NCBI GenBank assembly: GCA_001189215.1
Contig: LFCR01000002.1
Coordinates: forward strand, 74,677-138,676
DNA: 64,000 bases
Direction of reading: 5' to 3'
Origin: Parcubacteria bacterium C7867-008
GTDB lineage: Bacteria; Patescibacteriota; Minisyncoccia; Phycocordibacterales; Phycocordibacteraceae
Shown: in pieces, positions 12,148-40,093 of the stretch
Layout: every line of letters starts with the position of its first letter
How positions within the stretch are numbered: position 1 is the stretch's first letter
Made by a program: the position numbers and the translations under genes
Notes under the pieces: generated by a model
Told to the model about the DNA's origin: nothing
Seen by the model: the letters and a program-made list of their open reading frames with translations, nothing else
Database searches by the model: none

Positions 12148-14136
12148 ATGACCTATTATAGGTGGGGAGAGCGTCTTTGCTATAGTGCATTGATGGATCA
12201 CCTGCAGCCTGAGTACGTTTCACATCTAAACCCACGCCAGAAAGAGGCGGTTCTTGCTACCAATGGGCCGGTTTCAGTGCTTGCGGGAGCAGGATCTGGC
12301 AAAACCTCAGTACTCACCACCCGCATATACCATTTAATGCGCCAAGGCGTACCTGCAGATAAGATTCTTGCTGTTACATTCACCAACAAAGCTGCTCGTG
12401 AGATGCGCGAACGCCTCCACGCCAAACTTCCAGACACACCGCTACCGTTTGTAGCCACCTTCCATGGTCTAGGTAGGGAACTGCTTCAAACGTACGGTTC
12501 TGTTATTGGCGTATCCCGTCACTTCACTATTTATGATCGTGATGATTCGAAGAGTGCGATACGAGAAGCACTTAAAGCGCTTGATGTTGATCCTAAAGAG
12601 GTACCGCCTGCTGCAATACTGTCTCGCATATCAAAAGCAAAGAGTGAGGGACAAACACTATCTGCATTTCGTGAGAAACATGGCCGAGAAAGTTTTCGTT
12701 CACGCATAACGGTAGACGTATGGGCACGCTACGATGAAACACTTAAGAAAGAAAAGGCACTCGACTTTGATGATCTCATTGTGCTTCCAGTACATCTGTT
12801 ACGTGATCATCTCGATGTGCGCGCACGCGTGCAGGAACGATTCTCACATTTACATATAGATGAGTATCAAGACACAAATGAGCTGCAAGGAAAACTTGCA
12901 CACTATATTGCGGGTGATCGTAAGAATATATTTGTTGTGGGTGATATCGATCAATCCATTTACACGTGGCGTGGGGCAACGATCGATAATCTTTTAAAGT
13001 TCGAAGAAACCTATCCTGGTGCAAAACATATTGTGCTCGAACATAACTACCGATCCACAGCGACTATCGTTGAAGCATCAAATCAAATCATCGAACGTAA
13101 CAAGAATCGAAAAGATAAACACGCAATCACAAACAACATGAAAGGTGATCGCATTACAATCCACCCTGCAGCCACTGCAGAAGGTGAGGCATTGTGGGTC
13201 GCACGTGAAGCACGTCGATTGATTGAGCGCGGTACAACGCCTGAAGAGATTGCGGTTCTCTATAGAACTAACTTCCAGAGCCGCACACTAGAAGAAGCGT
13301 TCTTGGCATGCTCTGTGCCATATAAGCTTCTAGGTACGCGCTTTTTTGACCGTAAAGAAGTTAAAGACACACTCGCCTGGATACGACTCGCGCTTGATCC
13401 AGATCGCGAATCAGATCGCATGCGTGCAGTGCAGTCACCACCTCGTGGGATAGGCAAAGTAACACTTGGAAAACTTGTGGCAGGGAAGCGTGATGAACTA
13501 CGCGCAGGAGATAAAGCGAAAGTAGACACCTTTGAAGCAGTGGTTGCCTCACTACGTGAACTTGCACAGACCGCACTACCGTCTGTGTTTGTAAAACTTG
13601 TTATTGAAAAGAGTGGCATTGAATCTTCGTTATTAAAGGAAGGTGAGGAAGGACAGGAACGTCTTGAGAACGTAAAAGAACTTGCAACACTAGCGAGTCG
13701 CCATGATGAAATACCGGGTCTCGATGGTATTGCTGCATTCCTTGCAGAAGCCGCACTCGCGGGTGATCAAGATGAGATGGATCGTCCTGAAGGAGAGCGC
13801 AAAGAAAAGAAACCAGGAGTAACACTCATGACCGTGCACGCAGCAAAGGGACTTGAGTTCGATGCAGTGTTTGTTACGGGACTCGAAGAAGGACTCTTCC
13901 CACATGAAGGTATGGGTGGGGAAGAAGAGCGTGACGAGGAAGAAGAACGTCGACTCTTTTATGTTGCAATCACTCGTGCAAAGAAACGACTCTTCCTTAC
14001 GCTCGCTCGCATACGTCGTATCTATGGAACAGACTTCATGTCTGAACCATCACAATTCATTCGTGATATTGATCCTGAACTCACGCACTTCGTTGATGCG
14101 GGTCCGTTCGGTCCAGAGGCTATCATAGAAGCATAA
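12148..14136 (+). CDS. uvrD: UvrD/PcrA-type ATP-dependent DNA helicase (start may be the ATG at 12193)
   Basis: Walker A AGAGSGKT, UvrD motifs TFTNKAAREMRERL, DEYQDTN, VGDIDQSIYTWRGA, and C-terminal FYVAITRAKKRLFLT. Confidence 0.85.
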   Translation: MTYYRWGERLCYSALMDHLQPEYVSHLNPRQKEAVLATNGPVSVLAGAGSGKTSVLTTRIYHLMRQGVPADKILAVTFTNKAAREMRERLHAKLPDTPLPFVATFHGLGRELLQTYGSVIGVSRHFTIYDRDDSKSAIREALKALDVDPKEVPPAAILSRISKAKSEGQTLSAFREKHGRESFRSRITVDVWARYDETLKKEKALDFDDLIVLPVHLLRDHLDVRARVQERFSHLHIDEYQDTNELQGKLAHYIAGDRKNIFVVGDIDQSIYTWRGATIDNLLKFEETYPGAKHIVLEHNYRSTATIVEASNQIIERNKNRKDKHAITNNMKGDRITIHPAATAEGEALWVAREARRLIERGTTPEEIAVLYRTNFQSRTLEEAFLACSVPYKLLGTRFFDRKEVKDTLAWIRLALDPDRESDRMRAVQSPPRGIGKVTLGKLVAGKRDELRAGDKAKVDTFEAVVASLRELAQTALPSVFVKLVIEKSGIESSLLKEGEEGQERLENVKELATLASRHDEIPGLDGIAAFLAEAALAGDQDEMDRPEGERKEKKPGVTLMTVHAAKGLEFDAVFVTGLEEGLFPHEGMGGEEERDEEEERRLFYVAITRAKKRLFLTLARIRRIYGTDFMSEPSQFIRDIDPELTHFVDAGPFGPEAIIEA

Positions 14137-14138
14137 GT

Positions 14139-14924
14139 ATGTTTGCTAAGAAATCACTCGGACAGAACTTTCTCATGCACGCTCAGACGGCGGAGCGTAT
14201 CGTGCAAGCAGCCAAATTACCGGAAGGAGCACTCGTACTCGAAATTGGTCCCGGTACCGGTATGCTTACCCGCGCACTCCTTGCCCAGAATCTAAAAGTC
14301 GTTGCAGTGGAAGCAGACGACACGCTCGCACCTGAGCTTGAAGAGACCTTTGCTCCAGAAATAGCATCGAAGCAATTGAAGATTGTGCATGCGGATATAC
14401 GAAACTTCGATCCAAGCATCATAGAAGGGGAATACCACTTGGTGGCAAACATTCCTTATTACATAACGGGGGAAATCATTCGTTCCTTCCTTACCGCCGG
14501 ACACCAGCCCCGTTCTATGACTCTTTTGGTACAGAAAGAGGTGGCAGAGCGTATTGCACGAAGCAAGAAAGAGAGTCTTCTTTCGCTCTCGGTGAGGGTG
14601 TTTGGCACCCCAGAGTACTGTTTTACCGTGCCCCGGGGCGCATTTCGGCCTGCACCGAACGTTGATTCGGCAGTTTTAGCTATACGAAATATAGATTCTG
14701 AAGCATTTTCAGATAAAAGTAAGGAGAATTACTTCTTTTCCGTTATACGAGCGGGATTTGCACACAAGCGTAAGCGCTTAGCGAAGAATCTTGAGGATGT
14801 GGCATCTGTTGAACAGGTTACGTCCGCATTTGATGCAGCCTCACTGGACAAAAACATTCGTCCGGAAGATCTTTCACTTGAAGATTGGAAGCTACTTACA
14901 CAATCACTTTCAAACAGTTCATAA
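14139..14924 (+). CDS. rsmA: 16S rRNA (adenine1518/1519-N6)-dimethyltransferase
   Basis: FAKKSLGQNFL N-terminus and GPGTGMLT SAM motif. Confidence 0.85.
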   Translation: MFAKKSLGQNFLMHAQTAERIVQAAKLPEGALVLEIGPGTGMLTRALLAQNLKVVAVEADDTLAPELEETFAPEIASKQLKIVHADIRNFDPSIIEGEYHLVANIPYYITGEIIRSFLTAGHQPRSMTLLVQKEVAERIARSKKESLLSLSVRVFGTPEYCFTVPRGAFRPAPNVDSAVLAIRNIDSEAFSDKSKENYFFSVIRAGFAHKRKRLAKNLEDVASVEQVTSAFDAASLDKNIRPEDLSLEDWKLLTQSLSNSS

Positions 14925-14992
14925 CGTATACACACCATATATAGTTGCGCCCTGCTTCACGTGCTGATCATGGTACTATTTATCAAGCAATT

Positions 14993-16006
14993 ATGGCGTT
15001 GTCTGCTCGATCAATCCGCATCATCGCAGCATCAGCACTATCACTAGTGCTTATTGTTGGCGCATACGTTACGTCTGGTCCTATAGATTTTCTTAGGAGT
15101 CGAGTTGCAGACGCGCAGTCTACTGAATCACTCCTTAAGGCATACGCAGCAAAAGATAGTGATGGCGATGCACTTCCAGACTGGCAGGAAGCACTCTACG
15201 GTACTGACCCTAACAATGCGCACTCATTTGATAAGACGCTCACTGATAACGAAGCAGTAAACAAAGGTCTCGTTACCCCAAAGACGTCTGCGGTGGTGCC
15301 AGTTGATCCAGCACTAGATACTCCTGATACTGCTGCTGATGTTCCTGGGAAAGATCCGGCACCAGGCAGTATTACGGACGAGTTTGGAAGACAGTTTTTC
15401 CAAGAATATGTTGCTGCATCTAACGGTGGCCAACTTTCTGAGGAAGATAAGGATGCACTCATTGCAAAACTTCTTGCTCAGTACAGTCAAAAGGCAAGCA
15501 CAGTACTCATTTCAACCTATACCCCCGTATCAGTACGCACATCTTCTGATGTAACAATCACAGAGTATGCGGAGAGTATCGAACAGGTTGTACGTCAGAA
15601 TGATGTACCCCCTGATGCGAGTGATCCGGTAACACTTATGCAAGGATTCTTGGAAGACAGCGATCCTGCTGCATACAAGAAACTTGTTGGCCTTAGTAAG
15701 GCATACTCTGGAATAACAAAAGACCTTCTATCTGTTACCGTGCCTCCGCAACTCGCATCGGAACACCTCGCACTGATTCAGTCTTTTGACACGCTCGCGC
15801 GCTCAACAAAAGCAGTAACAAAATATGAAGATGATCCCCTCGCGGTTCTAGGGTCTCTCTCGCTCCTACAACCAACTGTACATACGCTTATGCTTTCTCT
15901 CCTTACAACTGGTCGTGGAGTTATTGCTGAGAGTGGGGAGCCAAGCGATGGAATGCCAGGTGCACTTATTCTAAAAGTGGTACGTGCCGCAGGAGAACAG
16001 CCATGA
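14993..16006 (+). CDS. hypothetical membrane-anchored exported protein
   Basis: Start moved to ATG 14993 (MALSARSIRIIAASALSLVLIVGAYV signal/anchor); stop overlaps next start (ATGA). Confidence 0.45.
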   Translation: MALSARSIRIIAASALSLVLIVGAYVTSGPIDFLRSRVADAQSTESLLKAYAAKDSDGDALPDWQEALYGTDPNNAHSFDKTLTDNEAVNKGLVTPKTSAVVPVDPALDTPDTAADVPGKDPAPGSITDEFGRQFFQEYVAASNGGQLSEEDKDALIAKLLAQYSQKASTVLISTYTPVSVRTSSDVTITEYAESIEQVVRQNDVPPDASDPVTLMQGFLEDSDPAAYKKLVGLSKAYSGITKDLLSVTVPPQLASEHLALIQSFDTLARSTKAVTKYEDDPLAVLGSLSLLQPTVHTLMLSLLTTGRGVIAESGEPSDGMPGALILKVVRAAGEQP

Positions 16007-17424
16007 GTACAAACCGCCTCCCACGTATAGCGACTGCTGGAATGTGTTTTGCACTTGTCTTAAGTCTTACCTTTGCACCATTCTCATTTAGTACACCGAG
16101 AGCGAGTGCCCAACTTCCTGTTACCGATGCTGCGGTTCTTATTGCACTTACTCCACTTAATGTAAGTGCGGCAACAAGCGCAGAAGGTAACTTCTTTGAT
16201 GCACATATCCGTCCTATTCTTGATGGTCTCGCATGGACTGTAGCAAAAGTAGCAGTTCAATCTCTCACTCGTAGCGTGGTGAACTGGATTAACTCAGGTT
16301 TCCAAGGCTCCCCTGCATTCGTTGGAGACCTTAAGCAGAATCTTCAGGAACTCGGGGATACGGTTGCTGACGACTTTTTTGACTCACTTCAAGATAATAC
16401 GGGTGTAGATGTACGCTCTCCATTCAAAGACCAGGTGACCCAAGCACTTCGTGACAACTACTACCGCACAACGGGTGGATTCTACGGAAGCAACTACGAT
16501 CTAGATCGCTATAGCGATGATCCTGCTGCTTTCGTTAATGGTCACTTTGCGAAGGGTGGTTTTGACGCAATGTTTGCCGCAATGGCACAGGATGAGAACA
16601 CACCACTTGGTGCATACCGCGCAGGACAGGATTCACTTGCGAGAAAGGTTGAAGACTTCCGTGTAAACCGTCTCCACGAACTTACATGGGGCAAAGGATT
16701 CATGTCTTGGCGCGGTAACTGTCTCGTAAAGCAGCCTGCAGGCACTCCTACCTCTCTGCAAAAGAAAGATAGCTGTCTTTCTTATGAGATTAAAACTCCT
16801 GGATCGGTTATTGAAAGCACTCTTGGTATCACCGCATCATCCCCACTTCGTCAGCTTGAACTCGCCGACTCATTCAATGAGATTATCGGTGCACTTGCGG
16901 GTCAGCTTGTTGGACAAATACTTGGTGGTACGGGTCTTTCCGGAGCCTCACAGCCTCGCCCAGGGGGTGGTAGCTCATACTTAGATGAAGCAACTGACCC
17001 TGATCAGTACTCTCAAAACTCAACTAGCCTCGCAAATGGTTTCATTAAGAACGTTAGAGACGAGCAAACACGGACAAAGACCTATCAGAGGGATTGGCAA
17101 ACAGTGCAGTCTGCTGCAGAAGATGCAGGAAGCTGTGTTGACGACAGTGTAGTTCTTGATGCGGTTGAACGATCTAAAGCAGGACTTGAAAAAGCATCTG
17201 CTGCACTATCTGCACTCGACAAGATCAGTGCAAAGATATCGGCCGCTCAGAACTCAACTAACTCCTCAGCAGCACTCACCTCAGTCTCTGCTGAATTCCA
17301 AGAACTTACTTCATCAGGTACGTTTATTACTGCTGGTGAGCAGGTTGAGGCACAGACACAGGCAAGTGATTCAGAGGGTACTCTATACAAGAAACTCACA
17401 GCAACTTGCGGAAGTAAGCGATAA
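16003..17424 (+). CDS. hypothetical secreted protein, first gene of T4SS-like cluster
   Basis: Signal peptide MSTNRLPRIATAGMCFALVLSLTFAPFSFSTPRASA; Ala/Ser-rich C-terminal coiled region; translationally coupled to upstream gene. Confidence 0.45.
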   Translation: MSTNRLPRIATAGMCFALVLSLTFAPFSFSTPRASAQLPVTDAAVLIALTPLNVSAATSAEGNFFDAHIRPILDGLAWTVAKVAVQSLTRSVVNWINSGFQGSPAFVGDLKQNLQELGDTVADDFFDSLQDNTGVDVRSPFKDQVTQALRDNYYRTTGGFYGSNYDLDRYSDDPAAFVNGHFAKGGFDAMFAAMAQDENTPLGAYRAGQDSLARKVEDFRVNRLHELTWGKGFMSWRGNCLVKQPAGTPTSLQKKDSCLSYEIKTPGSVIESTLGITASSPLRQLELADSFNEIIGALAGQLVGQILGGTGLSGASQPRPGGGSSYLDEATDPDQYSQNSTSLANGFIKNVRDEQTRTKTYQRDWQTVQSAAEDAGSCVDDSVVLDAVERSKAGLEKASAALSALDKISAKISAAQNSTNSSAALTSVSAEFQELTSSGTFITAGEQVEAQTQASDSEGTLYKKLTATCGSKR

Positions 17425-17428
17425 CCCT

Positions 17429-19684
17429 ATGCGAATTACATCCCTGATGCTTCGCTCGGTACTCGTTGCAGTTTTATTTGTAGTACTAGTACTCCCCGGG
17501 GTACCTGTACACGCCCAACAACCTGCACCAACAAAGCCTGTTACTCCAGCCGCAGCAACACCTGCTCCTACGGCTGCTCCTACTGCCGCTGGGCAACCTG
17601 CTAAAACATCAGAAAGTCTTGGCGATAAGATAAAGGATGGAGCTGCAGCTGTAGGAGACATTGGTAGTTGTGCCAAAGATTTTGGAAACTGTCTTCTTAA
17701 TGCAGTGGGGAACGCCGTGGGTGGTTTTGCAAACTTTATACTGGCTCTCTCTGGAGTCCTTCTCAACTTTGTAATAGTTAAAACGGTATTCCAGTTCTCA
17801 ACACTTGTTGGTAACTCGCAGGGTCTATTAACCTCATGGGGAATACTGCGTGATCTTGGAAACCTGGTGCTGTTGTTCGGGTTTGTTCTGATGGGGCTCG
17901 GTACTATTTTGGATACGAATAAACTCCCAGACAAAAAAGCAATTCCAATGCTCATAGTCTTTGCAGTTCTTCTGAACTTTAGTCTCTTTGCTGCTGAAGC
18001 GGTTATTGATACATCTAACGTGCTTACATCAGCAATATACGCACAAGCAAACACTAATCCATGTTATTCGGAGGCGTGTGATATTAACGTGGGCCTTGGA
18101 GGAACCATAATGGAGGCAACCGGGCTTTCAACTCTAAACAATGTCCCAACTGACAGCTATTCCAAAAAGGCCAACAAACTTAGTATCATTTTTGGGTTGG
18201 CTGCATTCGCCATAATTGGTAGCGTTGTACTCTTTGCTGCTGCAATAATGCTGGCATTCAGAGCAGTTACACTAACAGGTTTGATAATTATCTCTCCCAT
18301 TGGTTTTGCTGGAATGGCTATTCCTCCACTTAAAAAGTATGCAACACAGTGGTGGAATGCACTTATACATCAAGCATTCTTTGCTCCTCTACTGTTCCTG
18401 TTCATCCTTATAACGCTAAAAGTAACCGAAGGGTTTGCTGCAGGGACTACGAATAAGGGCCTCGCCTCAGCGCTGCTAGCGCAGGGCACATCGGAAATGG
18501 GCATCATTATGGTGTTCATGCTGATCATTGGCGGTCTCGTTGCGTCACTTATGGCTGCAAAGAAGTTTGGCGCCATGGGAGCAGACTATGCGATCAATAC
18601 AGCAGGGAAGGTGGTAGGTGGAGCAACATTCGGTACCGCTGGATTTGTTGGAAGAAGAACTATCGGTGCTGGTTCATTGGCAGCCGCCCGCACCATACGC
18701 TCACAGAGCTGGGGCGCAACAGGGGCTGGTCGCATACTGGCAGGAGTTGCTGACCGGGGCGGGAAGGCAAGTTATGACTTCCGTAAAACGAAGATTGCAG
18801 CTCAAGCTTCTAAGAAAACTAAGATTGACTTTGGCACTCCAGGTAAAACTGCATCTGGTGGCTTTGCCGCAATAGAAAAGAAAGATATCGATAAGAAGAC
18901 TGCATACGCAAAGTCTCTTGAAATGAGTGAGAGCCAGAAGATAGAGAAAGAGAAACTTGGTGCTGCAAAAGAGACTGCTGCAGGTGAGCAGGCCGTTTCT
19001 GTTGTCGACACCAACACACGAAGAGCAGCCGCTGAAGCAACTAAGAAACAAATCAAAGACACTTGGGCTCCTCGCGAGCAACAGCTTAATACCGAGATTG
19101 CTGCTCTTGAAAGCAAGGCAGTAGCAAATGCTGGTGGGGCAGAGGTATCTCGTCTTGATACAGAAATCGCTATTGAAAAACTTAAAGCGCAACGCTTCCA
19201 AGCAACAGGACAGACTACAGAGTGGATGGATGCTGAAAACAAAGTCAAAGCGCTTCAGAAGCAGCGTGCAGAGTTTGTTGATGTTGAAACCAAACTCAAT
19301 GCACTTAGGGATGCAAAGACTACTGAGCTTTCTCAATACGAGGCTCAAATCGCTGTGGTTGATGGGGATCTCGCAAGCATCAGTGCAGAGAGTGCAGCAA
19401 GCGAGACGGCATACAAAGCGAAACTTGATGGAATCGATAAGAGACTCAAGGAGATTGATCCGAAGACTAAACAAGAAAAGTATGCCGAAGGACTTAAGAA
19501 TGATTGGTACGGTGGGTATAGCAGTCGTGAAGCAGCTCGAAAAATTAAGACTGACAACAAGAAGAAGTCTCCAGAGAAAGCACTTCTCGAAGCAATTAAG
19601 GCTCTTGAAGCAAACACTCCTCCTCCAGCAGCACCGCCAGCTCCTGGTTCTCCACCACCCCCTCCTACACCCCCAACTCCGTAA
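17429..19684 (+). CDS. TrbL/VirB6-like polytopic membrane protein with ~350-aa C-terminal coiled-coil/Lys-Ala-Glu-rich extension
   Basis: Start at ATG 17429 (5 nt after upstream stop) instead of track 17156; signal peptide, Pro/Ala-rich linker, then ~6 TM helices in VirB6-like spacing, then long charged coiled-coil and PPAAPPAPGSPPPPPTPPTP tail. Confidence 0.45.
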   Translation: MRITSLMLRSVLVAVLFVVLVLPGVPVHAQQPAPTKPVTPAAATPAPTAAPTAAGQPAKTSESLGDKIKDGAAAVGDIGSCAKDFGNCLLNAVGNAVGGFANFILALSGVLLNFVIVKTVFQFSTLVGNSQGLLTSWGILRDLGNLVLLFGFVLMGLGTILDTNKLPDKKAIPMLIVFAVLLNFSLFAAEAVIDTSNVLTSAIYAQANTNPCYSEACDINVGLGGTIMEATGLSTLNNVPTDSYSKKANKLSIIFGLAAFAIIGSVVLFAAAIMLAFRAVTLTGLIIISPIGFAGMAIPPLKKYATQWWNALIHQAFFAPLLFLFILITLKVTEGFAAGTTNKGLASALLAQGTSEMGIIMVFMLIIGGLVASLMAAKKFGAMGADYAINTAGKVVGGATFGTAGFVGRRTIGAGSLAAARTIRSQSWGATGAGRILAGVADRGGKASYDFRKTKIAAQASKKTKIDFGTPGKTASGGFAAIEKKDIDKKTAYAKSLEMSESQKIEKEKLGAAKETAAGEQAVSVVDTNTRRAAAEATKKQIKDTWAPREQQLNTEIAALESKAVANAGGAEVSRLDTEIAIEKLKAQRFQATGQTTEWMDAENKVKALQKQRAEFVDVETKLNALRDAKTTELSQYEAQIAVVDGDLASISAESAASETAYKAKLDGIDKRLKEIDPKTKQEKYAEGLKNDWYGGYSSREAARKIKTDNKKKSPEKALLEAIKALEANTPPPAAPPAPGSPPPPPTPPTP

Positions 19685-19740
19685 CTAAAGTCACCGTGGA
19701 GTAGTGGTAATTATTCCACTCACGCGCGATACTAAGAGTA

Positions 19741-20937
19741 ATGGGAGAAGAAGAGATCAACATTGATGAGCTCAATCCACAACAGAAGGCTGCCATTCTC
19801 ATGGCAGACCTTCCTGTTCCTGTTCAGAACTTTCTTAGAAGTCCTGAGCGCGACGCCGTATCAATTGAATTAAGTACAAAATATAAACTGCACGCTGATC
19901 AGGCAGGAGTATTCTCTGATGCATATATCTATATGCTCATGGGAATCTACACTCCTGAAGAGTTTGTACAACAACTTCGTCAGGCACAAATACCAGAAGC
20001 TACCGTTCAGGGAATAACCCTTGATCTAAATGAACGTGTGTTTAAGCGCCTTCAGAATGCTGAGCGTACGTACACGCCACCAGCCACGCCCGCACCAGCG
20101 CCAAAACCAGTACCGCCGCCGGTAGTAGTTGCTCCGGTTACTCCAAAGCCGATACAACCAACAGTAATGTCTGCACCAATTGTTCCAAAGCCTGTGCAAC
20201 CTCCTGTAGTTGCTGCTCCAGTCCTTCCAAAACCAGCTGTTACCGCCCCAGCACCACTGGTCGCAAGCATTCCAACCTTTAATCCTGCACTTGGCCCTGT
20301 TCCAACAGAACCAACCCCTACTCCGACACCATTTGCGCCAGTACCTAAAAGCATGCCTGTTATTCCGGTTCAAGGACCAATGCCAGCTGCTGCTCCAGTT
20401 CCACCCCCAGTACCACAAATTCCTGCCTATATTCCACCGTCGCCAGGAGCGACACCTATATATAGTCCGCCAACAGAGGCAGTGCAGCCTGGAGTACGAA
20501 CTATGGCTCACGATATTGAGATGATTAAAGAGGCTGTTGAGCATCCTCATCCTGTACGTCCAGACGTTCCTCCTCAGATATCTTGGCAGCCAAACTCCCC
20601 AGCACGTTCATTCCAGACATCATCTGTACCAAATACTCTTGCTGCACCAAGTATTCATCCGGCTCCAACCGGCGTGCCTATTGCTCCAATACCATCTATG
20701 CCACCGGCTCCAACCATGCCCGCACCTTCAGCACCATTATCTGTTGCGGTCCCACCACAGCACACAGCATCAACGCCTCCGTTACCTCCATCTTCAGCAC
20801 CCGTACCGCACAATCTCCCAACAGAACCAGCAGCGTATCCATGGCAGCAGCAAACACCAGCATCCGTATCAACGGGTCCAGCGAATCCAATCATAAAAGA
20901 GTACAGTGTGGATCCGTATCGTGAGGTCCCTCAGTAG
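19741..20937 (+). CDS. proline-rich low-complexity protein (PxxP/PVxP repeats), hypothetical
   Basis: Globular N-terminal ~115 aa then ~280 aa of P/A/V repeats (PVQPPVVAAPVLPKPAVTAPAPL...); causes many spurious antisense ORFs. Confidence 0.5.
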   Translation: MGEEEINIDELNPQQKAAILMADLPVPVQNFLRSPERDAVSIELSTKYKLHADQAGVFSDAYIYMLMGIYTPEEFVQQLRQAQIPEATVQGITLDLNERVFKRLQNAERTYTPPATPAPAPKPVPPPVVVAPVTPKPIQPTVMSAPIVPKPVQPPVVAAPVLPKPAVTAPAPLVASIPTFNPALGPVPTEPTPTPTPFAPVPKSMPVIPVQGPMPAAAPVPPPVPQIPAYIPPSPGATPIYSPPTEAVQPGVRTMAHDIEMIKEAVEHPHPVRPDVPPQISWQPNSPARSFQTSSVPNTLAAPSIHPAPTGVPIAPIPSMPPAPTMPAPSAPLSVAVPPQHTASTPPLPPSSAPVPHNLPTEPAAYPWQQQTPASVSTGPANPIIKEYSVDPYREVPQ

Positions 20938-20958
20938 GGAACTGATATACTCAAGGTA

Positions 20959-21384
20959 ATGGAGTATCAGGTTCCTCAGTTTATTGAAGTCGAAGATAAG
21001 ATATTTGGTCCTTTCACTCTTCGACAATTCATCTTCGTTGCAGGCGGAGTAGGGTTAAGTGCTGCAATTCTTGTATATGTTCCCCTTATCTTTGCTCTCA
21101 TACTTGTACTTCCTATTGCAGGGATCACCGGGGCACTCGCATTCTACAAAGTAAATAACAAGTCCTTCTTGGATATCATGGAGGCAGGATTCAACTACTA
21201 CACTAAGGAGCGTCTTTATCTTTGGAAGAAAGTTGAGAAGAAGTCTGAAACTCCTGCAATTGTGCAAGTTGCTGCGCCCACACAAGTGGATAGACAAAAG
21301 TTAGGTGTTTCAAGTGATCGTTTGAAAGAACTTGCGTGGTCTCTAGATATCAAGGATCACAATAAGACACCTGATACCTACTAA
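20959..21384 (+). CDS. VirB3-like small two-TM membrane protein
   Basis: 141 aa, hairpin of two TM helices (FIFVAGGVGLSAAILVYVPLIFALILVLPIAGITGALAF) directly upstream of VirB4 gene, as in Gram-positive-type T4SS. Confidence 0.4.
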   Translation: MEYQVPQFIEVEDKIFGPFTLRQFIFVAGGVGLSAAILVYVPLIFALILVLPIAGITGALAFYKVNNKSFLDIMEAGFNYYTKERLYLWKKVEKKSETPAIVQVAAPTQVDRQKLGVSSDRLKELAWSLDIKDHNKTPDTY

Positions 21385-21399
21385 CGTTATAGTTACTGT

Positions 21400-22032
21400 A
21401 TGCCTGCATCTAAACCAGCTCAAGATTTTGTACCTGTATCAGAAGTACGCAGTGGTGTAGTCATCCTGAAAGAGGGGGGCTATCGTGGCATCTTGATGTG
21501 TTCTTCTCTTAACTTCGCACTTAAGTCAGAGGACGAGCAGCGCGCAATAATTGGTGGGTTCCAGAACTTCCTTAACACGCTCGATTTCACCGTGCAGATT
21601 GTGGTGCATTCCCGTAAAACTGACATTCGTCCGTATCTTAATCTCCTAGGTGAACGTCTTCAGCACCAATCGAGTGAACTCATGCGCACTCAACTACGTG
21701 AATACATAAACTTTATTCGAACCTTTATTGAAGGTTCAGAAATCATGACAAAGACCTTCTATGTGGTGGTTCCGTATTCTGTAAGCAGTGCAGCCGTTTC
21801 TGTTAAGGGAGCATTTGCAGGAATAGGGAAGACGCCAAGTGCAGAACCCGTTGCTGATCAGGGCTTCGAGGAGGGTCGAGTGCAGCTTGAACAACGTATG
21901 GCACTCGTGGCTGGCGGTCTTGGCAGTTCAGGTCTACGCGCAATTCCACTTGGTACAGAAGAGATCATCGAACTTCTATACCGTTCATTCAATCTAGGCG
22001 AGATGGATAATCCAATCTCATTCACCGCATAA
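21400..22032 (+). CDS. VirB4/TraE-family ATPase, N-terminal domain (separated from ATPase domain by in-frame TAA)
   Basis: GVVILKEGGYRGILMCSSLNFALKSEDEQRAIIGGFQNFLNTLDFTVQIVVHSRKTDIRPYLNLL resembles the CagE/TrbE/VirB4 N-domain; same reading frame as 22036..23850. Confidence 0.55.
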   Translation: MPASKPAQDFVPVSEVRSGVVILKEGGYRGILMCSSLNFALKSEDEQRAIIGGFQNFLNTLDFTVQIVVHSRKTDIRPYLNLLGERLQHQSSELMRTQLREYINFIRTFIEGSEIMTKTFYVVVPYSVSSAAVSVKGAFAGIGKTPSAEPVADQGFEEGRVQLEQRMALVAGGLGSSGLRAIPLGTEEIIELLYRSFNLGEMDNPISFTA

Positions 22033-22035
22033 TCT

Positions 22036-23850
22036 ATGGCACTACTTGATTTCTTCAACAACAACAAGAAAGATGAGGCACCGGCAATGGCGCCAGTGTT
22101 GCCTAAGGATATTTATGCACAGGGCACACTCGATCTTGCAGACACGATCGCACCCGCAGCACTTAAGGTTGGCTCACGCGAGCTTGAGCTTGGAGAAAAG
22201 GTGGCACGATCGTTCTATACCATTTCATATCCACGCTTCCTTACGGACAGCTGGTTCACCCCCATAATCAATCTCGATAAGGTGTTTGATGTTTCTATAT
22301 TCGTTAGCCCTATTGATACCGCAGATGCGCTCCATAACTTCCAGAGGAAGGTAGCTGAAGTGCAGAGCCAGATTTCAGAAAGGGAAGCAAAGGGTCTTGT
22401 GCGTGATCCAATGCTTGATACGGCATACCAAGACCTTGAAAACCTCCGAGACAACCTACAACAAGCCCAGGAACATCTGTTTGAGGTTGGTTTGTACATA
22501 ACCATGTACGCTTCAAGTAAGGAGGAGCTTGATAAGGTTGAAGGAGATCTTCGCGGCATTCTTGATTCAAAACTCGTATACACCAAGCCTGCGCTCTTCC
22601 AGCAGGAGCAAGGGTTCCGTACCACGCTACCACTTGCCTTAGACCAGTTGAACGTAACAAACAAGCTCAACTCTGCACCGCTTTCTTCTATCTTCCCATT
22701 CGTCTCTTTTGATCTCTCAAGCGATCGAGGAATCCTGTACGGTATAAACCGCCACAACTCATCACTTATTCTTTTCGATCGTTTCTCACTTGAGAACTAC
22801 AACTCGGTTGTGTTCGCAAAGTCTGGCTCTGGAAAGTCCTATGCCGTGAAGCTTGAGATTCTCCGTTCACTCATGTTTGAAACAGACGTTATCGTTATTG
22901 ATCCTGAGCGTGAATACGACAACCTCGCACAGGCTACCGGTGGTAGGGTATTCAATATTTCTCTTTCAAGCGAGAACCATATCAACCCATTTGATCTTCC
23001 GCCGGTTAAGGAGGATGAAAACCCTTCAGATATTCTTCGCAGCACAATCATCAATTTGGTTGGGCTCTTCCGCATCATGCTTGGTGGTCTCAGTCCTGAA
23101 GAAGATGCAATTATCGATCGTGCTATCTCTGAAACCTATGCGCTCAAAGATATTAGTGGGGATGCAGATTTCACCGGTGTAGAGCCACCACTACTTTCAG
23201 ACTTTGAGAACGTACTTTCTGGTATGGAGGGTTCAACATCACTCGTACAGCGCCTCTCTAAGTACACCCGCGGCACGTGGTCTGGATTCCTCAATCAACC
23301 AACGAACGTTGATATCAAGAATCAGTTTGTGGTGTTTTCGGTGCGAGACATGGAAGATGAGCTTAAACCAGTGGCGATGTATATCGTTACGCACTTCATC
23401 TGGAATGCCGTACGCCACGAACTTAAGAAACGCCTTCTTATCATTGATGAGGCATGGTGGATGATGAAGTCTGAAGATACCGCATCATTCCTCTTCAGTA
23501 TTGCGAAACGCGGACGTAAATACTTCCTTGGTCTCTCAACTATCACCCAGGACGTTGAGGACTTCCTTCGCAGTCCATACGGTAAGCCAATTCTTACCAA
23601 CTCCTCTATGCAGCTTCTGCTCAAACAATCTCCAACAACGGTAGATGTACTACAGCAAACATTTAATCTGACAGATGAGGAGAAATTCCTTCTGCTTGAG
23701 TCTGGAGTGGGTGAGGGTCTCTTCTTTGCCGGCCTTAAGCACGCAGCAATTAAAGTTGTTGCTTCCTATACAGAAGACCAGATCATAACCTCAGACCCGT
23801 CCCAGCTACTTCAGATACAGCGTGAAAAATCACGGCAGGAGTCTGCCTAA
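22036..23850 (+). CDS. VirB4/TraE-family T4SS ATPase, ATPase domain
   Basis: Walker A FAKSGSGKSY, Walker B LLIIDEAWWMM, GLSTITQD; length plus preceding ORF about 814 aa, typical of full VirB4. Confidence 0.7.
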   Translation: MALLDFFNNNKKDEAPAMAPVLPKDIYAQGTLDLADTIAPAALKVGSRELELGEKVARSFYTISYPRFLTDSWFTPIINLDKVFDVSIFVSPIDTADALHNFQRKVAEVQSQISEREAKGLVRDPMLDTAYQDLENLRDNLQQAQEHLFEVGLYITMYASSKEELDKVEGDLRGILDSKLVYTKPALFQQEQGFRTTLPLALDQLNVTNKLNSAPLSSIFPFVSFDLSSDRGILYGINRHNSSLILFDRFSLENYNSVVFAKSGSGKSYAVKLEILRSLMFETDVIVIDPEREYDNLAQATGGRVFNISLSSENHINPFDLPPVKEDENPSDILRSTIINLVGLFRIMLGGLSPEEDAIIDRAISETYALKDISGDADFTGVEPPLLSDFENVLSGMEGSTSLVQRLSKYTRGTWSGFLNQPTNVDIKNQFVVFSVRDMEDELKPVAMYIVTHFIWNAVRHELKKRLLIIDEAWWMMKSEDTASFLFSIAKRGRKYFLGLSTITQDVEDFLRSPYGKPILTNSSMQLLLKQSPTTVDVLQQTFNLTDEEKFLLLESGVGEGLFFAGLKHAAIKVVASYTEDQIITSDPSQLLQIQREKSRQESA

Positions 23851-23856
23851 TCCGAT

Positions 23857-24240
23857 ATGGCAGCACAGCCTATCGACAACACGGAACAGCATTTGATGAT
23901 TGGCGCTTCATTCCTTGCAGATACCATTGGTCTTATCCCTGTAATTGGTAACTTTGTTTGGTTTGCCGCGTACGTTTCATTAACACTCTATTTTCTAATA
24001 AAGCTCGGGCCAAGCTATCTCGGGGGGAAGAATTCGGATCAAAAGATGGCCAAAGCCCTTATAACAGGGATTATTGGCGCCATACCAGTAATAGGGAACA
24101 TTGCTCCAGATCTCCTCATTCTGACCGTTACTACATTTCGTATGCACAATAAGGAGGTGGCGGAAGAGGAGCACAAAATGCAGGCAGCAACACAAGCAGC
24201 TAATGATAATGTTCGACGGAACCTATCCCGAGCTGCTTAG
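23857..24240 (+). CDS. small membrane protein with duplicated IPVIGN motif, hypothetical
   Basis: GLIPVIGNFVWFAAYVSLTLYFL and IIGAIPVIGNIAPDLLILTV hydrophobic repeats. Confidence 0.45.
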   Translation: MAAQPIDNTEQHLMIGASFLADTIGLIPVIGNFVWFAAYVSLTLYFLIKLGPSYLGGKNSDQKMAKALITGIIGAIPVIGNIAPDLLILTVTTFRMHNKEVAEEEHKMQAATQAANDNVRRNLSRAA

Positions 24241-24277
24241 CTTCGTACTGGTATAGACGCGTTATACTGTACCTATC

Positions 24278-25264
24278 ATGAAAGCAGGTTTCGTAGTACT
24301 GGCAGCACTTCTTATTGGTCTAAGCGGCACACCTGTACACGCACAGACTGCTGAAATTGGTCAGGACCCTTTGATGGTTTCTATAAGTCCTGATTTCCCA
24401 CGTCCATACGAAGCAGTTACGATAAGTCCTCAAAGTAACCTTATAGATCTAAGTGCCAGCACGGTCAGTGTATCTGTGAACGGAGTACTGATTGAAAAGG
24501 GGAGCGGTACCGCACCCGTACAAATACAAGCTGGTGCCGCTGGTGTCAGGACTGTTGTTACGGTAACTGCCGTGAATAATGGCCAGACATATACGAAAGA
24601 AATAACCATTCGCCCTGCAGATGTGGCACTTATTGTCGAGCCTGTATCGGTAAACCATCCATTCTATCGAGGAGCATCTCTTGTTTCTTCTGAAGGACTG
24701 CTTCGTTTAGTTGCACTTCCAGATCTCCGCACCACATCTGGGGCACCAATTCCCGCATCGAGCCTTGTATATACCTGGCGCAACGGTAGTCAGGTCCTTC
24801 AGGATAATTCGGGTATCGGCAAGTCTGTCCTTACCGCAACTGCGCCGGTACGCTATCGAGATACCACTATTCGTGTAACTGTTGCTACACAAGACAGTAG
24901 TATCGTTGCTGAGGCAACGGCATTCATCTCTCCAACCGTTCCTGTTATTCGTATCTACCAAAACGACCCCCTACTTGGTCCACTCTTTAATTACGCACTG
25001 CCTGCAAAAATAACTATGACTAGTGAGGAACAGACATTCCGTGCTGTTCCATATTACTTCTCCGGCATCCCACTCATGAACTGGACGGTTAACGGTAACC
25101 AGAGTCAATCAGGTAAGGATATTACGGTGCGTTCAAGTGGTTCAGGGACCGGAACAGCACTTGTTGGTTTCAATGCAAAACAGACTGCGTCAGGGGTGAT
25201 TGCTAACAGCTCTCTCAACATTAACTTCGGTGAGAAGAAGTCCCTTGGTATATTTGGCCTATAG
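24278..25264 (+). CDS. secreted beta-rich hypothetical protein
   Basis: Signal peptide MKAGFVVLAALLIGLSGTPVHA; Thr/Val/Ser-rich. Confidence 0.45.
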   Translation: MKAGFVVLAALLIGLSGTPVHAQTAEIGQDPLMVSISPDFPRPYEAVTISPQSNLIDLSASTVSVSVNGVLIEKGSGTAPVQIQAGAAGVRTVVTVTAVNNGQTYTKEITIRPADVALIVEPVSVNHPFYRGASLVSSEGLLRLVALPDLRTTSGAPIPASSLVYTWRNGSQVLQDNSGIGKSVLTATAPVRYRDTTIRVTVATQDSSIVAEATAFISPTVPVIRIYQNDPLLGPLFNYALPAKITMTSEEQTFRAVPYYFSGIPLMNWTVNGNQSQSGKDITVRSSGSGTGTALVGFNAKQTASGVIANSSLNINFGEKKSLGIFGL

Positions 25265-25266
25265 CT

Positions 25267-25893
25267 ATGAAACGCACCACTCTAATTTCAGCATCTTACT
25301 TCCTCCTTAGTGCGGTACTTATTTCAGTACCATCTCTCGTATTCGCGGATGACTCCTTCGTTCCTCTCACGAGTCTTCCTGGTATTCAAGATGTTGTTGG
25401 ATCGCCAACACTACCCGCATTCATAAATAATATTTATAAGTTCCTTATTGGGGGAGCGGCAATCTTGGCAGTGATTGAGATCAGTCGTGCAGGGTTCTCA
25501 ATCATGAATAGCAGTGACAGTATCTCTGCAAACAAGAAGGCTAAGGCACGTATATCTAATGCAATTATCGGACTCGTTCTCGTTCTTTCTCCATACATTG
25601 TGTTTAGCATTATCAATCCAAAGATTCTTGATATTAGTCTTGATTTCAGTCAGCTGAAGTCTGGTGCAACAGATGGAGGGGGTGGGGGTGCAGGGGGAAG
25701 TTCCGCATCATCTACGACTCCTGTTGCTGGTTGTGAGGCATATCCAACTCCAAGTGCTATTGGCGCTGAACAAAGCTGCAACACGGGAGCGGGGTATAAG
25801 CAGATAGATGCTAAGTGTTGCAGGGGGAGTGCAGCAGGAGCAAAATGCTGCGCTATTCCAAAGGGCACTGCTTCCACAACTCCTAAAATTTAG
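25267..25893 (+). CDS. pilin-like (VirB2/TrbC-like) protein with Gly/Cys-rich C-terminal tail
   Basis: Signal peptide, then two hydrophobic helices (FLIGGAAILAVIEISRAGF / AIIGLVLVLSPYIVFSIINP) separated by a short polar loop, then GGGGGAGG and 6-Cys tail. Confidence 0.35.
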   Translation: MKRTTLISASYFLLSAVLISVPSLVFADDSFVPLTSLPGIQDVVGSPTLPAFINNIYKFLIGGAAILAVIEISRAGFSIMNSSDSISANKKAKARISNAIIGLVLVLSPYIVFSIINPKILDISLDFSQLKSGATDGGGGGAGGSSASSTTPVAGCEAYPTPSAIGAEQSCNTGAGYKQIDAKCCRGSAAGAKCCAIPKGTASTTPKI

Positions 25894-25902
25894 TACCAAA
25901 TT

Positions 25903-27123
25903 ATGACTCGACGCATTCTCATCATCGCCGCAGCAATCATAGTCATACTTGGTATTGCAGTTGCAGTCTATTTCTTCTTTTTTGCTTCTAAACCAAGTGA
26001 ACTAATAATTGACACAGATCCATTCGGCAACACAGGTGCTGGAAATATTGATGGTTCTGGCTCATTAATAGAAGGGCAGGGAGCAGGTACGGTAGTTGGT
26101 CCTAACTTTGTACGCATCACTGAAGGCCCCGTAGCACTTGGCGTAGCAGCCGTTGATGTAATGATTCCTGACGTTACGGGTGGTGTAAGCACCACGAGCA
26201 GTAGCACACCACTGGTTCCTGACGTGGCGGTACGGTTCATTGATCGCGCAAGTGGGAACATATACAGCTATGTGACGCATGCTCGTACCCTCACTCGTAT
26301 TTCAAATAAGACACTGCCAGGTATTCAAGAAGCATCATGGGTTCCTGATGGCTCACTCGTATATGCACGTTTCATCACCAGTGACTCAGAGTCTGGAGAA
26401 CATATTGCCACCTATGCACTTCCAGAGAATGGAGAAGGGGGTTACTTTATCGAACAAGATCTTTCTCAAGCGACTGTTGTTGGTTCCACCGGCCTCTTTA
26501 CGCTCGTTACGAGCACAGGTGGTAGTGTAGGCACTATTGCTAAAGCAGACAGTACTGGAGCGAAGACACTCTTCACGTCTCTTATTTCATCTCTCATCGT
26601 CTATCCTTCAACTGGTACGTACTTTGCACACACAAAGGCCTCAAGCCAGACCGATGGATACGGCTTCCAGATAACCAACGGTTCATTTAATCGTGTACTT
26701 GGTCCATTACGTGGCCTCTCACTCCTTCCAAGTCCTTCAGGAAAGTCTCTTCTTTATAATTATGTAAGTGGCGGAGTTACGTACCTCGCAGTTATCGATC
26801 TTGCGAATCGAAACGCAACAGCACTTCCACTCGCTACTCTTAGTGAGAAGTGTGTGTGGGCAAGCGAGGTAACCGTATATTGTGGCGTTCCAACCACACT
26901 GAGTGGCTCAGCAATACCTGAAGATTGGTACCAAGGTGCTACCACCTTCTCAGATCGTATCTGGCGTATTGATATGACCGCTCGTGTCGCTACTCTTGTG
27001 ATTGATCCAACGCAAGTAGCGAAGACCTCTATTGATGCCGTTGCTCTCACCACAGACCCTAAAGAAGATGTGCTTGTGTTCACCGACAAGAGGACGGGCT
27101 CGCTTTGGTTATACGATCTCTAG
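25903..27123 (+). CDS. N-terminally anchored hypothetical protein (likely beta-propeller/surface)
   Basis: TM anchor ILIIAAAIIVILGIAVAVYFFFF; last gene of the plus-strand cluster. Confidence 0.45.
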   Translation: MTRRILIIAAAIIVILGIAVAVYFFFFASKPSELIIDTDPFGNTGAGNIDGSGSLIEGQGAGTVVGPNFVRITEGPVALGVAAVDVMIPDVTGGVSTTSSSTPLVPDVAVRFIDRASGNIYSYVTHARTLTRISNKTLPGIQEASWVPDGSLVYARFITSDSESGEHIATYALPENGEGGYFIEQDLSQATVVGSTGLFTLVTSTGGSVGTIAKADSTGAKTLFTSLISSLIVYPSTGTYFAHTKASSQTDGYGFQITNGSFNRVLGPLRGLSLLPSPSGKSLLYNYVSGGVTYLAVIDLANRNATALPLATLSEKCVWASEVTVYCGVPTTLSGSAIPEDWYQGATTFSDRIWRIDMTARVATLVIDPTQVAKTSIDAVALTTDPKEDVLVFTDKRTGSLWLYDL

Positions 27124-27145
27124 TAGGAGTTAAGAAAAAACCGCT

Positions 27146-27883
27146 CTAAGCGGTTTTTTCTTCTTCAAGTACCACTTGGGGTAGTTTCCGTATAAGAAGT
27201 TCTTGAGCAAGAGTGAATAGGCTTGTGGTGATGAAATAGAGTGCAATTGCTCCAGAAGATACATATGCAATACCACCTATGAAGACCGGTAATAGATATC
27301 GCATCTGAATAGCCATAGTGCGATTGAACTGTTCTGATGTGGTCGCGTTCTTTCCAACCTTTGGAATAGGCATAGCGTACTTAGCCTGAAGGAATTGAGT
27401 TCCTGCCGCAACAACGGCAAGTATCACGTTGTGACTCGTGAGAGTAAAGAAGCCGAGGAACAAGAAGGAAACGGTTTCAGGAACGGCAACAAATGAGTAG
27501 AGCAGGGCAGTATCAACCCCAACGAGCTCACGCTGGAACACAAGATACAGTGCAATAACAACAGGAAGCTGGATAAGCAGCGCAAGAATACTCGAAAAAG
27601 GATTGATCTTGTACTTCTTATAGAGTGCAAACGTCTCTTTTGCCTGAGTTTCCTTATCATCCTTGTATTTCTCCTGTAGTTCCTTGAATTTAGGCTGTAT
27701 AACCTGCATTGCTCGAGAAGTTCGTAGAGCAGAGACCGTAAGAGGGAGGATAGCGAGCTTAACAATGATCGTTACAATGATCACCGCCAGACCCAAATCA
27801 CCGCCCGGGAGTACATCCACGAGCGCAATAAGGAGATTATAAATAGGAACAAATAAGTAGGTGTGGAATAGATTGCCGATCAT
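27146..27883 (-). CDS. yidC: membrane protein insertase YidC/Oxa1 (short form)
   Basis: Five TM helices with conserved IIVKLAILPLT and KINPFSSILALLIQLPV; sits in the rpmH-rnpA-yidC context. Confidence 0.8.
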   Translation of the reverse strand: MIGNLFHTYLFVPIYNLLIALVDVLPGGDLGLAVIIVTIIVKLAILPLTVSALRTSRAMQVIQPKFKELQEKYKDDKETQAKETFALYKKYKINPFSSILALLIQLPVVIALYLVFQRELVGVDTALLYSFVAVPETVSFLFLGFFTLTSHNVILAVVAAGTQFLQAKYAMPIPKVGKNATTSEQFNRTMAIQMRYLLPVFIGGIAYVSSGAIALYFITTSLFTLAQELLIRKLPQVVLEEEKTA

Positions 27884-28218
27884 GTAGGTTCCATAGTACC
27901 GGAAGGGAAGGATTGTTGTAAGAGTGTAGTAAGTTCCACCTCCATTTCAGAGAAAGGGAGTTCGGCTGCCCCGGGTCGTGCATGAATGATTATTACCCTC
28001 CCAGACACACACCAAGGCTTGGTTATGGCCTTAATACGGCGCTTAAGCTGATGCCGGTCCACTGATTTCTTGGCTACCTTCTTAGAAACCACCACCGCAC
28101 CCCCTGAAATAGGGGCAGATTGTATGTAGGCCATAGAAAAATACCGGCTAGCGGTACGTCGCAGGCCGGTATTCTGCTCAAAACCGGCCCTAGGGAGGCG
28201 GTTGGAGCGTGAAAGCAT
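27880..28218 (-). CDS. rnpA: ribonuclease P protein component
   Basis: KKVAKKSVDRHQLKRRIK basic motif; start overlaps rpmH stop. Confidence 0.8.
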   Translation of the reverse strand: MLSRSNRLPRAGFEQNTGLRRTASRYFSMAYIQSAPISGGAVVVSKKVAKKSVDRHQLKRRIKAITKPWCVSGRVIIIHARPGAAELPFSEMEVELTTLLQQSFPSGTMEPT

Positions 28219-28370
28219 TAGCGTACTTTCTTAGAGACAGTAAGGCTGGCACGGCCCTTACGGCGACGTGCGAGGAGCACACGACGTCCGGTAGGGGTAG
28301 CTGAACGAGCACGGAAACCGTGGGTTCGTGCGCGCTTACGCTTCTTTGGCTGGTAGGTGCGCTTAGGCAT
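28218..28370 (-). CDS. rpmH: 50S ribosomal protein L34
   Basis: Reverse-complement translates [50 protein letters not shown]; the ORF-track entry 28190..28384 is a different frame and is spurious. Confidence 0.85.
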
Positions 28371-28376
28371 AGGAAG

Positions 28377-28385
28377 TTATACACA
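28377..28385 (+). promoter_or_regulatory. DnaA box (TTATACACA, 1 mismatch)
   Basis: In rpmH/dnaA divergent intergenic region. Confidence 0.5.
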
Positions 28386-28436
28386 GGATACTAACAGGTT
28401 GCGCTCTGGCGTGCAAGAAAAGCCCTATCTTTGTGG

Positions 28437-28445
28437 TTATCCACA
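28437..28445 (+). promoter_or_regulatory. DnaA box (TTATCCACA, perfect consensus)
   Basis: 23 nt upstream of dnaA ATG; overlaps inverted TGTGGTTAT. Confidence 0.65.
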
Positions 28446-28467
28446 GGCCTGTATACAATGAGCGTAC

Positions 28468-39972: not shown

Positions 39973-40022
39973 ATAGGTGAATACCCGAATAATAGCACCA
40001 CCTTACGGCCCATAACCCCTAT

Positions 40023-40051: not shown

Positions 40052-40093
40052 GAATCTGAACAAAAACCACTCGAATCTCGAGGAGACCGAGCA

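Follow-up and report, generated by a model that had tools for sequence, protein, structure and literature searches.

A conserved gene cluster beside dnaA in Parcubacteria bacterium C7867-008, probably a non-conjugative type IV secretion system of the Patescibacteria clade

Introduction

The closest described relatives of the gene cluster reported here, which lies in a stretch of 64,000 nucleotides (hereafter the window) of contig LFCR01000002.1 from Parcubacteria bacterium C7867-008, are the type IV secretion systems (T4SSs) of the Patescibacteria. In the study by Quinonero-Coronel et al. 2025 (PMC12102498), the VirB4 ATPases of these bacteria form a monophyletic clade nested in MPF-FATA (MPF, mating-pair formation). 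The commonest partner of VirB4 is TrsD, and PrgI/VirB3, VirB6 and VirB2-like pilins (PF18895/PF04956) are also reported; homologues of VirB8 and VirB1 are very few there and relaxases almost none. Homologues of the type IV coupling protein (T4CP) are seldom near virB4, VirD4-like genes being present in most Patescibacteria genomes away from it, and the T4SS of Paceibacteria adjoins dnaA, dnaN, rnpA and ksgA, again according to PMC12102498.

In Southlakia epibionticum epibiotic growth cannot do without the T4SS of the Saccharibacteria (Wang et al. 2023, PMC10633639) and comEC is dispensable (PMC12857230); a T4CP homologue did not emerge as essential (PMC12102498). A review calls the function of the system 'completely unknown' and names effector delivery or uptake of nucleotides or DNA as proposals (PMC11665869), and for a relative that feeds on host RNA tubular structures, perhaps T4SS pili, have been described (bioRxiv 10.64898/2026.06.21.733656).

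An earlier note on the window had described ten consecutive plus strand genes at 16003-27123 as a Gram-positive-style T4SS layout, more likely a contact or effector-translocation apparatus than a complete conjugation module, and had proposed profile searches and a comparison of synteny as checks. Here we report the analysis that followed.

Results

Composition of the cluster

The cluster is probably a T4SS of the Patescibacteria clade in a Paceibacteria genome, derived from a monoderm MPF-FATA system and having a non-conjugative role at the interface with a host. Its recognised components are the ATPase VirB4, a TrsD-like protein encoded apart from it, PrgI (VirB3-like), a VirB2-like pilin and a probable VirB6-like protein (Table 1). 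Both in these parts and in its setting the cluster resembles the systems in PMC12102498: there, too, a TrsD-like gene adjoins virB4 and PrgI/VirB3, VirB6 and VirB2-like pilins occur, and the location is chromosomal, near dnaA/dnaN/rnpA/ksgA and with no relaxase or T4CP nearby. Since the system matches the published one, the finding is not new. The remaining genes, g0, g1, g3, g7, g8 and g10, are not named in the available part of PMC12102498.

For comparison, one genome per species was scanned with VirB4. Relatives of it are present in more than 594 species genomes, and the best 80 (loci L001-L080), all from Paceibacteria/Parcubacteria and 71-87% identical, were compared; the 30 loci that span rsmA to yidC are referred to as complete clusters. 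The open reading frame (ORF) listing gives the ten plus strand genes at exactly the coordinates of the earlier note. Its starting point has to be moved, as the co-conserved block opens one gene earlier, at g0. The ORF of g0 is 14945-16006, with the conserved methionine M17 at 14993 and its last 4 nt shared with g1; that of g2 opens at a TTG at 17156, and the start that reads MRITSL is at 17429. The junctions within the cluster range from the 4-nt overlap to a gap of 56 nt. Each gene family is found again at the same position in related genomes, and because of this recurrence we regard the genes g0 to g10 as real. No paralogues of the cluster families were found elsewhere in the 64-kb window, and a promoter and terminator scan of the region was uninformative, with counts at or below the shuffle expectation.

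Table 1. Genes of the cluster and its borders, in positions of the window
Gene	Position	Strand	Assignment or character
uvrD	12148-14136	+	UvrD/PcrA-type helicase; upstream of rsmA
rsmA/ksgA	14139-14924	+	Upstream boundary; RsmA/KsgA (dimethyladenosine transferase), assigned from the translation by eye, without a family scan
g0	14993-16006	+	Membrane-anchored surface protein, TSP3-like Ca-binding motif
g1	16003-17424	+	Secreted, mostly alpha-helical; large unnamed family
g2	17429-19684	+	VirB6/TrbL-like polytopic membrane protein ('extended VirB6')
g3	19741-20937	+	Cytoplasmic-type; N-domain, proline-rich linker, DPYRE C-terminus
g4	20959-21384	+	PrgI family (VirB3-like), two transmembrane segments
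g5	21400-22032	+	TrsD-like; stand-alone homologue of the VirB4 N-terminal domain
g6	22036-23850	+	VirB4 ATPase
g7	23857-24240	+	Small membrane protein, IPVIGN motif twice
g8	24278-25264	+	Secreted beta-sandwich (Ig/cadherin-like), predicted
g9	25267-25893	+	VirB2-like pilin with C-terminal extension
g10	25903-27123	+	Extracellular beta-propeller (predicted), N-terminal anchor
yidC	27146-27883	-	Downstream boundary
rnpA	27880-28218	-	Downstream boundary; Ribonuclease_P match
dnaA	28468-29817	+	Origin region
dnaN	30059-31159		Downstream of dnaA

The VirB4 motor and its separate N-terminal domain

The ATPase g6 scores 383 bits against NCBIfam NF045971, the model of the CD1110-family VirB4 proteins (curated cut-off 325), and 86.3 bits against Pfam P-loop_TraG, PF19044 (cut-off 25.8), and the Walker A (KSGSGKSY) and Walker B (LLIIDEAWWMM) motifs named in the earlier note are both seen in the translation. 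The suggestion that its N-terminal domain is encoded by a gene of its own holds as well, since g5 covers positions 2-122 of NF045971 and 104-233 of VirB4_plasma and g6 matches the remainder; together the two span the VirB4 models and thus make up a complete VirB4. In addition, g5 matches the unsplit VirB4 of the Clostridium botulinum plasmid pCDC3875 (E 1.4e-5) and, weakly, the TrsD model (19.8 bits, cut-off 200).

In the window g5 and g6 share one reading frame, with a single TAA plus one codon between them (22030-22035). A reading of this TAA as a pseudogene or read-through stop was considered and rejected, as a separate TrsD-like gene is present in 79/79 relatives, in the same frame as VirB4 in 21 and in a different frame in 58. 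A split in all relatives, with the frames distributed at about 1:2, indicates a genuine gene boundary, and the common frame found here is by chance.

The VirB3-like, VirB6-like and pilin proteins

Profile comparisons place VirB4 and PrgI above their cut-offs, and TrbL and the pilin just below them with orthologues that match. For the VirB3-like protein g4 the PrgI model PF12666 gives 39.2 bits (cut-off 27), the hydropathy scan shows two adjacent hydrophobic segments forming a transmembrane (TM) hairpin, in line with the two-TM protein expected, and the family is present in 72 loci.

The large membrane protein g2 has a signal-peptide-like N-terminus, at least 6 further TM segments in the hydropathy scan and a tail of ~370 aa, rich in Ala, Lys and Glu, with a proline run at its end, which agrees with its earlier description as a polytopic TrbL/VirB6-like protein with a long tail. 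It matches TrbL with E 2.5e-4 and 21.3 bits, below the cut-off of 25.9, and 4/20 of its orthologues match the same model (best 1.9e-7); a search of the g2 profile against sequences in the PDB matched no solved VirB6. Past the last TM segment there are 8 K/R and 1 D/E, so that by the positive-inside rule the tail is probably cytoplasmic.

The pilin g9 has a signal peptide followed by two hydrophobic helices (hydropathy scan and alignment), and its score against the T4SS pilin model PF18895, 26.2 bits, falls 0.4 bits short of the cut-off (26.6). PF18895 is matched by 21/24 of its orthologues (best 3e-11), and TrbC/VirB2 also by 8/24, so the pilin-like protein of the earlier note stands. Judged from these profile matches, the VirB2-like assignment is supported by the orthologues and so, more tentatively, is the VirB6-like one.

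Behind the two helices g9 carries a C-terminal extension of 90 aa, rich in Gly and Ser, with 6 Cys in the arrangement C..C..CC..CC, which is common to the nearest relatives. Over 46 orthologues among the 80 loci the extension is hypervariable, with a median length of 182 aa (range 7-501 aa) and an even number of Cys in 89%, and no Pfam domain was recognised in any of them. Only one pilin gene is present here, and it has this long extension, whereas Saccharimonadia and Microgenomatia have arrays of 2-11 short pilins. Three extensions (L040:13287-14162, L047:13257-14174 and L058:6804-7724) share a segment GTEPGH...G..D(I/L)R...HWH, which resembles a zinc-peptidase signature. A reading of these three as M15-peptidase-like was set aside, being without Pfam support.

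Conservation and chromosomal setting

Each of g0, g1, the VirB6-like protein, g3, PrgI, the TrsD-like protein, VirB4, g8 and g10 occurs in 30/30 complete clusters, in the order of the window, while the pilin is found in 29/30 and g7 in 21/30. The order uvrD-rsmA, block, yidC/rnpA-dnaA is likewise kept in 30/30, and the arrangement given for the T4SSs of Paceibacteria in PMC12102498 is thereby reproduced. Median identities to the relatives, taken from the same genomes, are 73% for VirB4, 55% for DnaA, 49% for UvrD, 49% for RsmA and 43% for YidC, and VirB4 exceeds DnaA in 48/50 loci, a gap that is somewhat inflated by the choice of loci for their VirB4 similarity. The least conserved members are g0, g1, g8, g9 and g10, with 25-36% identity across the relatives vs 73% for VirB4; as judged from these identities, the host-facing parts appear to evolve fast. 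The six partner families (g0, g1, g3, g7, g8 and g10) are lineage-specific and co-conserved in order across species.

The block does not bear the signature of a mobile element: both borders are housekeeping genes, the synteny is fixed in 30/30 complete loci and the GC content is uniform, 0.46-0.49 over the block and its flanks. The closest plasmid VirB4s, which are of the CD1110 type and come from Bacillota and Actinomycetota, are 29-34% identical. Because of the fixed housekeeping flanks, the uniform GC content and the distance to the plasmid copies, we conclude that the cluster is a vertically inherited chromosomal core system and not a mobile element.

An origin of the cluster as the mating-pair-formation module of a conjugative element, be it integrated or decayed, is highly improbable. 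The VirB4 family is named for conjugation, its conjugative-plasmid relatives have the same VirB6-PrgI-VirB4 order and a tyrosine recombinase is encoded at 6603-7526, but this recombinase is XerC/D-like and housekeeping genes stand between it and the cluster. In addition, every gene of the cluster is intact, the uvrD-rsmA and yidC-rnpA-dnaA flanks recur in 30/30 loci with uniform GC, and VirB4 is 29-34% identical to the plasmid copies as against 71-87% among Paceibacteria. The scan of the window found neither relaxase nor T4CP: among its 39 ORFs scanned with Pfam there was no relaxase, VirD4/TcpA or VirB11, as the earlier note had stated from the sequence. Its view that this is no complete module for conjugation accords both with the housekeeping synteny, which is conserved, and with the analysis in PMC12102498.

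With regard to a wall-degrading component, the Pfam scan found no cell-wall hydrolase domain in g0 to g10. In S. epibionticum (SEML1_0006-0019, PMC10633639) a peptidase/lysozyme gene lies directly downstream of virB4, which is not so here. Just outside the block, an M23 peptidase with two LysM domains is encoded at 10815-11888 on the minus strand, and this protein is a candidate for a functional stand-in for a VirB1-type wall hydrolase.

The helicase gene uvrD is co-oriented with the T4SS block, two genes upstream of it, and is syntenic in 28 loci. Its position could be linked to nucleic-acid handling or could merely reflect conserved origin-proximal synteny. From uvrD to g10 the 13 genes form a plus strand array (12148-28467) that points towards yidC/rnpA/dnaA, and the cumulative GC skew is lowest at ~24-26 kb of the window. 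If oriC adjoins dnaA, transcription of the entire T4SS operon runs head-on against the replication fork, an orientation kept in the relatives.

Comparison with plasmid and mycoplasma systems

The Gram-positive-style layout claimed for the cluster is consistent with the origin of its nearest plasmid VirB4s in Bacillota and Actinomycetota and with the order VirB6-PrgI-VirB4. In the MPF-FATA system of the CTn2/CD1110 type on pCDC3875, whose VirB4 is 33% identical to g6 over 89% of the length, the order is VirD4 - x - VirB6 - PrgI - x - unsplit VirB4 - small protein - SLT hydrolase, so that the two share the core order VirB6 - PrgI - VirB4 - small protein. The plasmid system includes VirD4 (CD1115), an SLT-domain hydrolase and a MOBP relaxase, its VirB4 of 797 aa is unsplit and it has no pilin; the cluster, unlike it, has a split VirB4, a VirB2-like pilin and extra surface proteins. 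When the cluster proteins were compared with the T4SS proteins of pCDC3875 by sequence and profile, only VirB4 was similar.

Models from the integrative and conjugative element (ICE) of Mycoplasma were matched weakly by their counterparts in the cluster: the pilin-like Mbov_0395 by g9 (20 bits, cut-off 40), the TM protein Mbov_0396 by g2 (20 bits, cut-off 70) and the VirB4 Mbov_0397 by g5/g6 (244 bits, cut-off 590). Weak matches to all three point to a triad of pilin-like protein, VirB6-like protein and VirB4 that is common to wall-less and monoderm systems. The transfer genes of Mycoplasma are on a mobile ICE, whereas the cluster is fixed in the chromosome.

The partner proteins

The six partners give little by way of named families. 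For g1, g3 and g7 no family was assignable in Pfam, PDB and profile searches, and among PDB sequences nothing beyond weak or generic matches (TSP3 motif, coiled coils, Ig-like, TolB) was obtained with the profiles of g0, g1, g2, g3, g8 and g10.

The opening gene g0 encodes a protein with one TM segment (hydropathy scan) and a thrombospondin-type-3-like Ca-binding motif, DSDGDALPDWQE, that matches TSP3_bac with 19.1 bits, below the cut-off; its profile matches the Ca-binding region of Bap. The next protein, g1 (100% identical to AB203_03850, annotated as hypothetical), has a signal-peptide-like N-terminus in the hydropathy scan, as expected of the secreted protein proposed earlier, and stands upstream of VirB6, the place of VirB5/TraI in other systems. 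Its family is large, with 5094 cluster representatives at E<=1e-3 in a full-library profile search, and among the matches listed (the best 150 of the 5094) all were close relatives and none gave a remote link. The g1 protein of the window had no match in Pfam. DUF4141 was not adopted and is kept as a lead only: 4/50 homologues match it, all below the cut-off, and they do so only over an N-terminal model of 53 residues, in overlap with the region of the signal peptide. The AlphaFold2 (AF2) model of g1 has a mean pLDDT of 64, low save for a C-terminal helical bundle, and no match at E<0.6 in Foldseek.

In g3, which has neither a TM segment nor a signal peptide (hydropathy scan), the alignment shows a conserved N-domain of ~100 aa, a proline-rich linker whose length varies between ~30 and 290 aa, in keeping with the proline-rich protein described before, and a DPYRE motif that is invariant at the extreme C-terminus, 3-4 residues before the stop. 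The N-domain occurs in 55 loci (g3 orthologues lie, for instance, at L014:8034-8894 and L006:8027-8902), and no match to g3 was found in Pfam or PDB. The DPYRE end might serve for docking, as a peptide, or act as a C-terminal signal.

The small membrane protein g7 does contain the IPVIGN repeat twice, and its match to DUF4112 is weak. Searched with jackhmmer, the family lies directly after VirB4 in 58 loci, and its members (113-566 aa) have a common N-terminal membrane domain and long, charged, variable C-terminal tails, for example in L001:11846-13126 and L013:11799-13460.

Two further partners are predicted to be beta-rich surface proteins; the earlier note had described them as a secreted beta-rich protein and an anchored surface protein. 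The secreted protein g8 has a signal-peptide-like N-terminus, matches Cadherin-like PF12733 above the cut-off (30.6 bits, cut-off 24.2) and, as a profile, matches Ig-like chains weakly. The last protein, g10 (100% identical to AB203_03895, annotated as hypothetical), has a single N-terminal anchor in the hydropathy scan, and its AF2 model (pLDDT 85, pTM 0.78) finds generic WD40/TolB propellers in Foldseek, with a weak match to a TolB profile in addition. On this model g10 is predicted to be a beta-propeller and not an NTF2 fold.

Other genes of the window

The remaining content of the window consists of housekeeping and type IV pilus genes. A PilB-type ATPase is encoded at 38320-39972 on the minus strand (T2SSE, 355 bits) and PilM at 52467-53552 on the plus strand, followed by two ORFs (53542-54102 and 54099-54641) with no Pfam match. 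Large ORFs without a Pfam match at E<=0.001 are found at 8608-10032 (plus strand, 474 aa), 48673-50730 (minus strand, 685 aa) and 40022-41116 (~320 aa).

Discussion

From the parts list, we propose that VirB4 together with the TrsD-like protein would dock at the membrane on PrgI and a VirB6-like channel, and would supply the power to extract the VirB2-like pilin and to polymerise it, so that a filament or conduit across the wall is formed. The variable, disulfide-rich C-terminal extension of the pilin would lie on the outside, as in a VirB2-type filament, and g0, g1, g8 and g10, with their predicted beta-sandwich, beta-propeller and helical folds, may be wall-spanning or host-contact parts. 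Such a machine would not serve conjugation; in the service of an epibiotic lifestyle, it would carry macromolecules between epibiont and host and need no coupling protein to do so. For its essential role in Saccharibacteria the T4SS does not depend on a coupling protein.

A system that binds the host by a VirB4/VirB2-like pilus and translocates nothing, that is, a filament for adhesion or attachment only, seems improbable to us. It would account for the hypervariable, Cys-rich, outward-facing pilin extension, for the Ig-like and propeller surface proteins and for the failure to find a substrate-recruiting ATPase in the window. On the other hand, type IV pili for adhesion are already encoded (PilB and PilM, see above), 30/30 clusters retain a long-tailed channel protein of the VirB6-like kind, and a conservation as extreme as that of VirB4 suits a core role in physiology.

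If, as we propose, macromolecules are moved by the cluster, the direction of transport has to be considered. To our knowledge, the T4SSs that have VirB4 as their sole ATPase, Helicobacter pylori ComB and archaeal Ced, are importers. For this reason we lean, tentatively and by analogy, towards a system that would take up host nucleic acids or other macromolecules rather than one for export. The likeness consists (see also PMC11665869 and PMC12102498) in a VirB4-type sole motor, pilin-like and VirB6-like parts and the lack of a relaxase and coupling protein. Homology specific to ComB or Ced was not found: the CedB model scored 33.1 bits (cut-off 700) and the CedD model 16.4 bits (cut-off 600), in the P-loop region only, and ComB is a diderm system with VirB7/9/10, unlike the cluster. 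The resemblance thus appears to be a functional one, VirB4 acting as sole ATPase, and not one of membership.

The opposite direction is possible, yet on balance rather unlikely. The cluster would then be an exporter of effector or toxin proteins into or onto the host, which would be manipulated or lysed, as with Bordetella Ptl or the Streptococcus suis 89K system. Effector delivery has been speculated upon (PMC11665869, PMC10633639), and Ptl exports without a coupling protein according to PMC12102498; also, the surface parts evolve fast, and the signal-peptide proteins g1 and g8 could be cargo of a two-step route. However, the signal-peptide proteins are co-conserved in fixed order like structural parts, in scans of the window ORFs no gene for an effector, a toxin or an immunity protein could be recognised within the cluster or beside it, and the coupling protein by which cytoplasmic substrates would be recruited was not found in the window.

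Several points weigh against reading the cluster as a non-conjugative T4SS at the host interface. Neither a VirB8-like nor a VirB1-like component could be recognised among the cluster proteins, where the folds of g0 and g8 were not modelled, and the window's own g2 and g9 score under the Pfam cut-offs for VirB6-like and pilin proteins; the inflation of the gap between VirB4 and DnaA, mentioned above, belongs here too. The sequence gives neither direction nor cargo. Moreover, the window covers 64 kb of a 173.7-kb contig and VirD4-like genes lie elsewhere in most Patescibacteria genomes, according to PMC12102498, so that a distant coupling protein is possible.

Going further along the line of uptake, the cluster might form a feeding tube, a VirB4-driven import pilus independent of a coupling protein. 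As one joint proposal, which we hold to be speculative and unlikely to be correct in all its parts, the host range would be set by the pilin's hypervariable, disulfide-rich fusion domain, and g3, with its proline-rich part as a ruler, would be a hitherto unrecognised adaptor that tethers the VirB4/TrsD motor or the VirB6 tail to incoming cargo or, alternatively, to downstream processing, for example by the co-oriented UvrD-type helicase. The DPYRE-tailed g3 and the extended pilin are features that are directly testable.

The locus represents no new kind of system, as the system has been published already. What is added here is an eleven-gene conserved parts list for Paceibacteria, including six uncharacterised co-conserved partners, and, beyond the literature, the DPYRE-tailed protein g3, the extended hypervariable Cys-rich pilin and a conservation of VirB4 above that of DnaA. 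The interest would be higher if the feeding-tube proposal and the adaptor role of g3 were true. Patescibacteria make up a large share of bacterial diversity and cannot make nucleotides, lipids or most amino acids. Their T4SS is nearly universal, it is essential in the one species tested and here its VirB4 is more conserved than DnaA; it is the leading candidate for the machine by which they take nutrients from their hosts.

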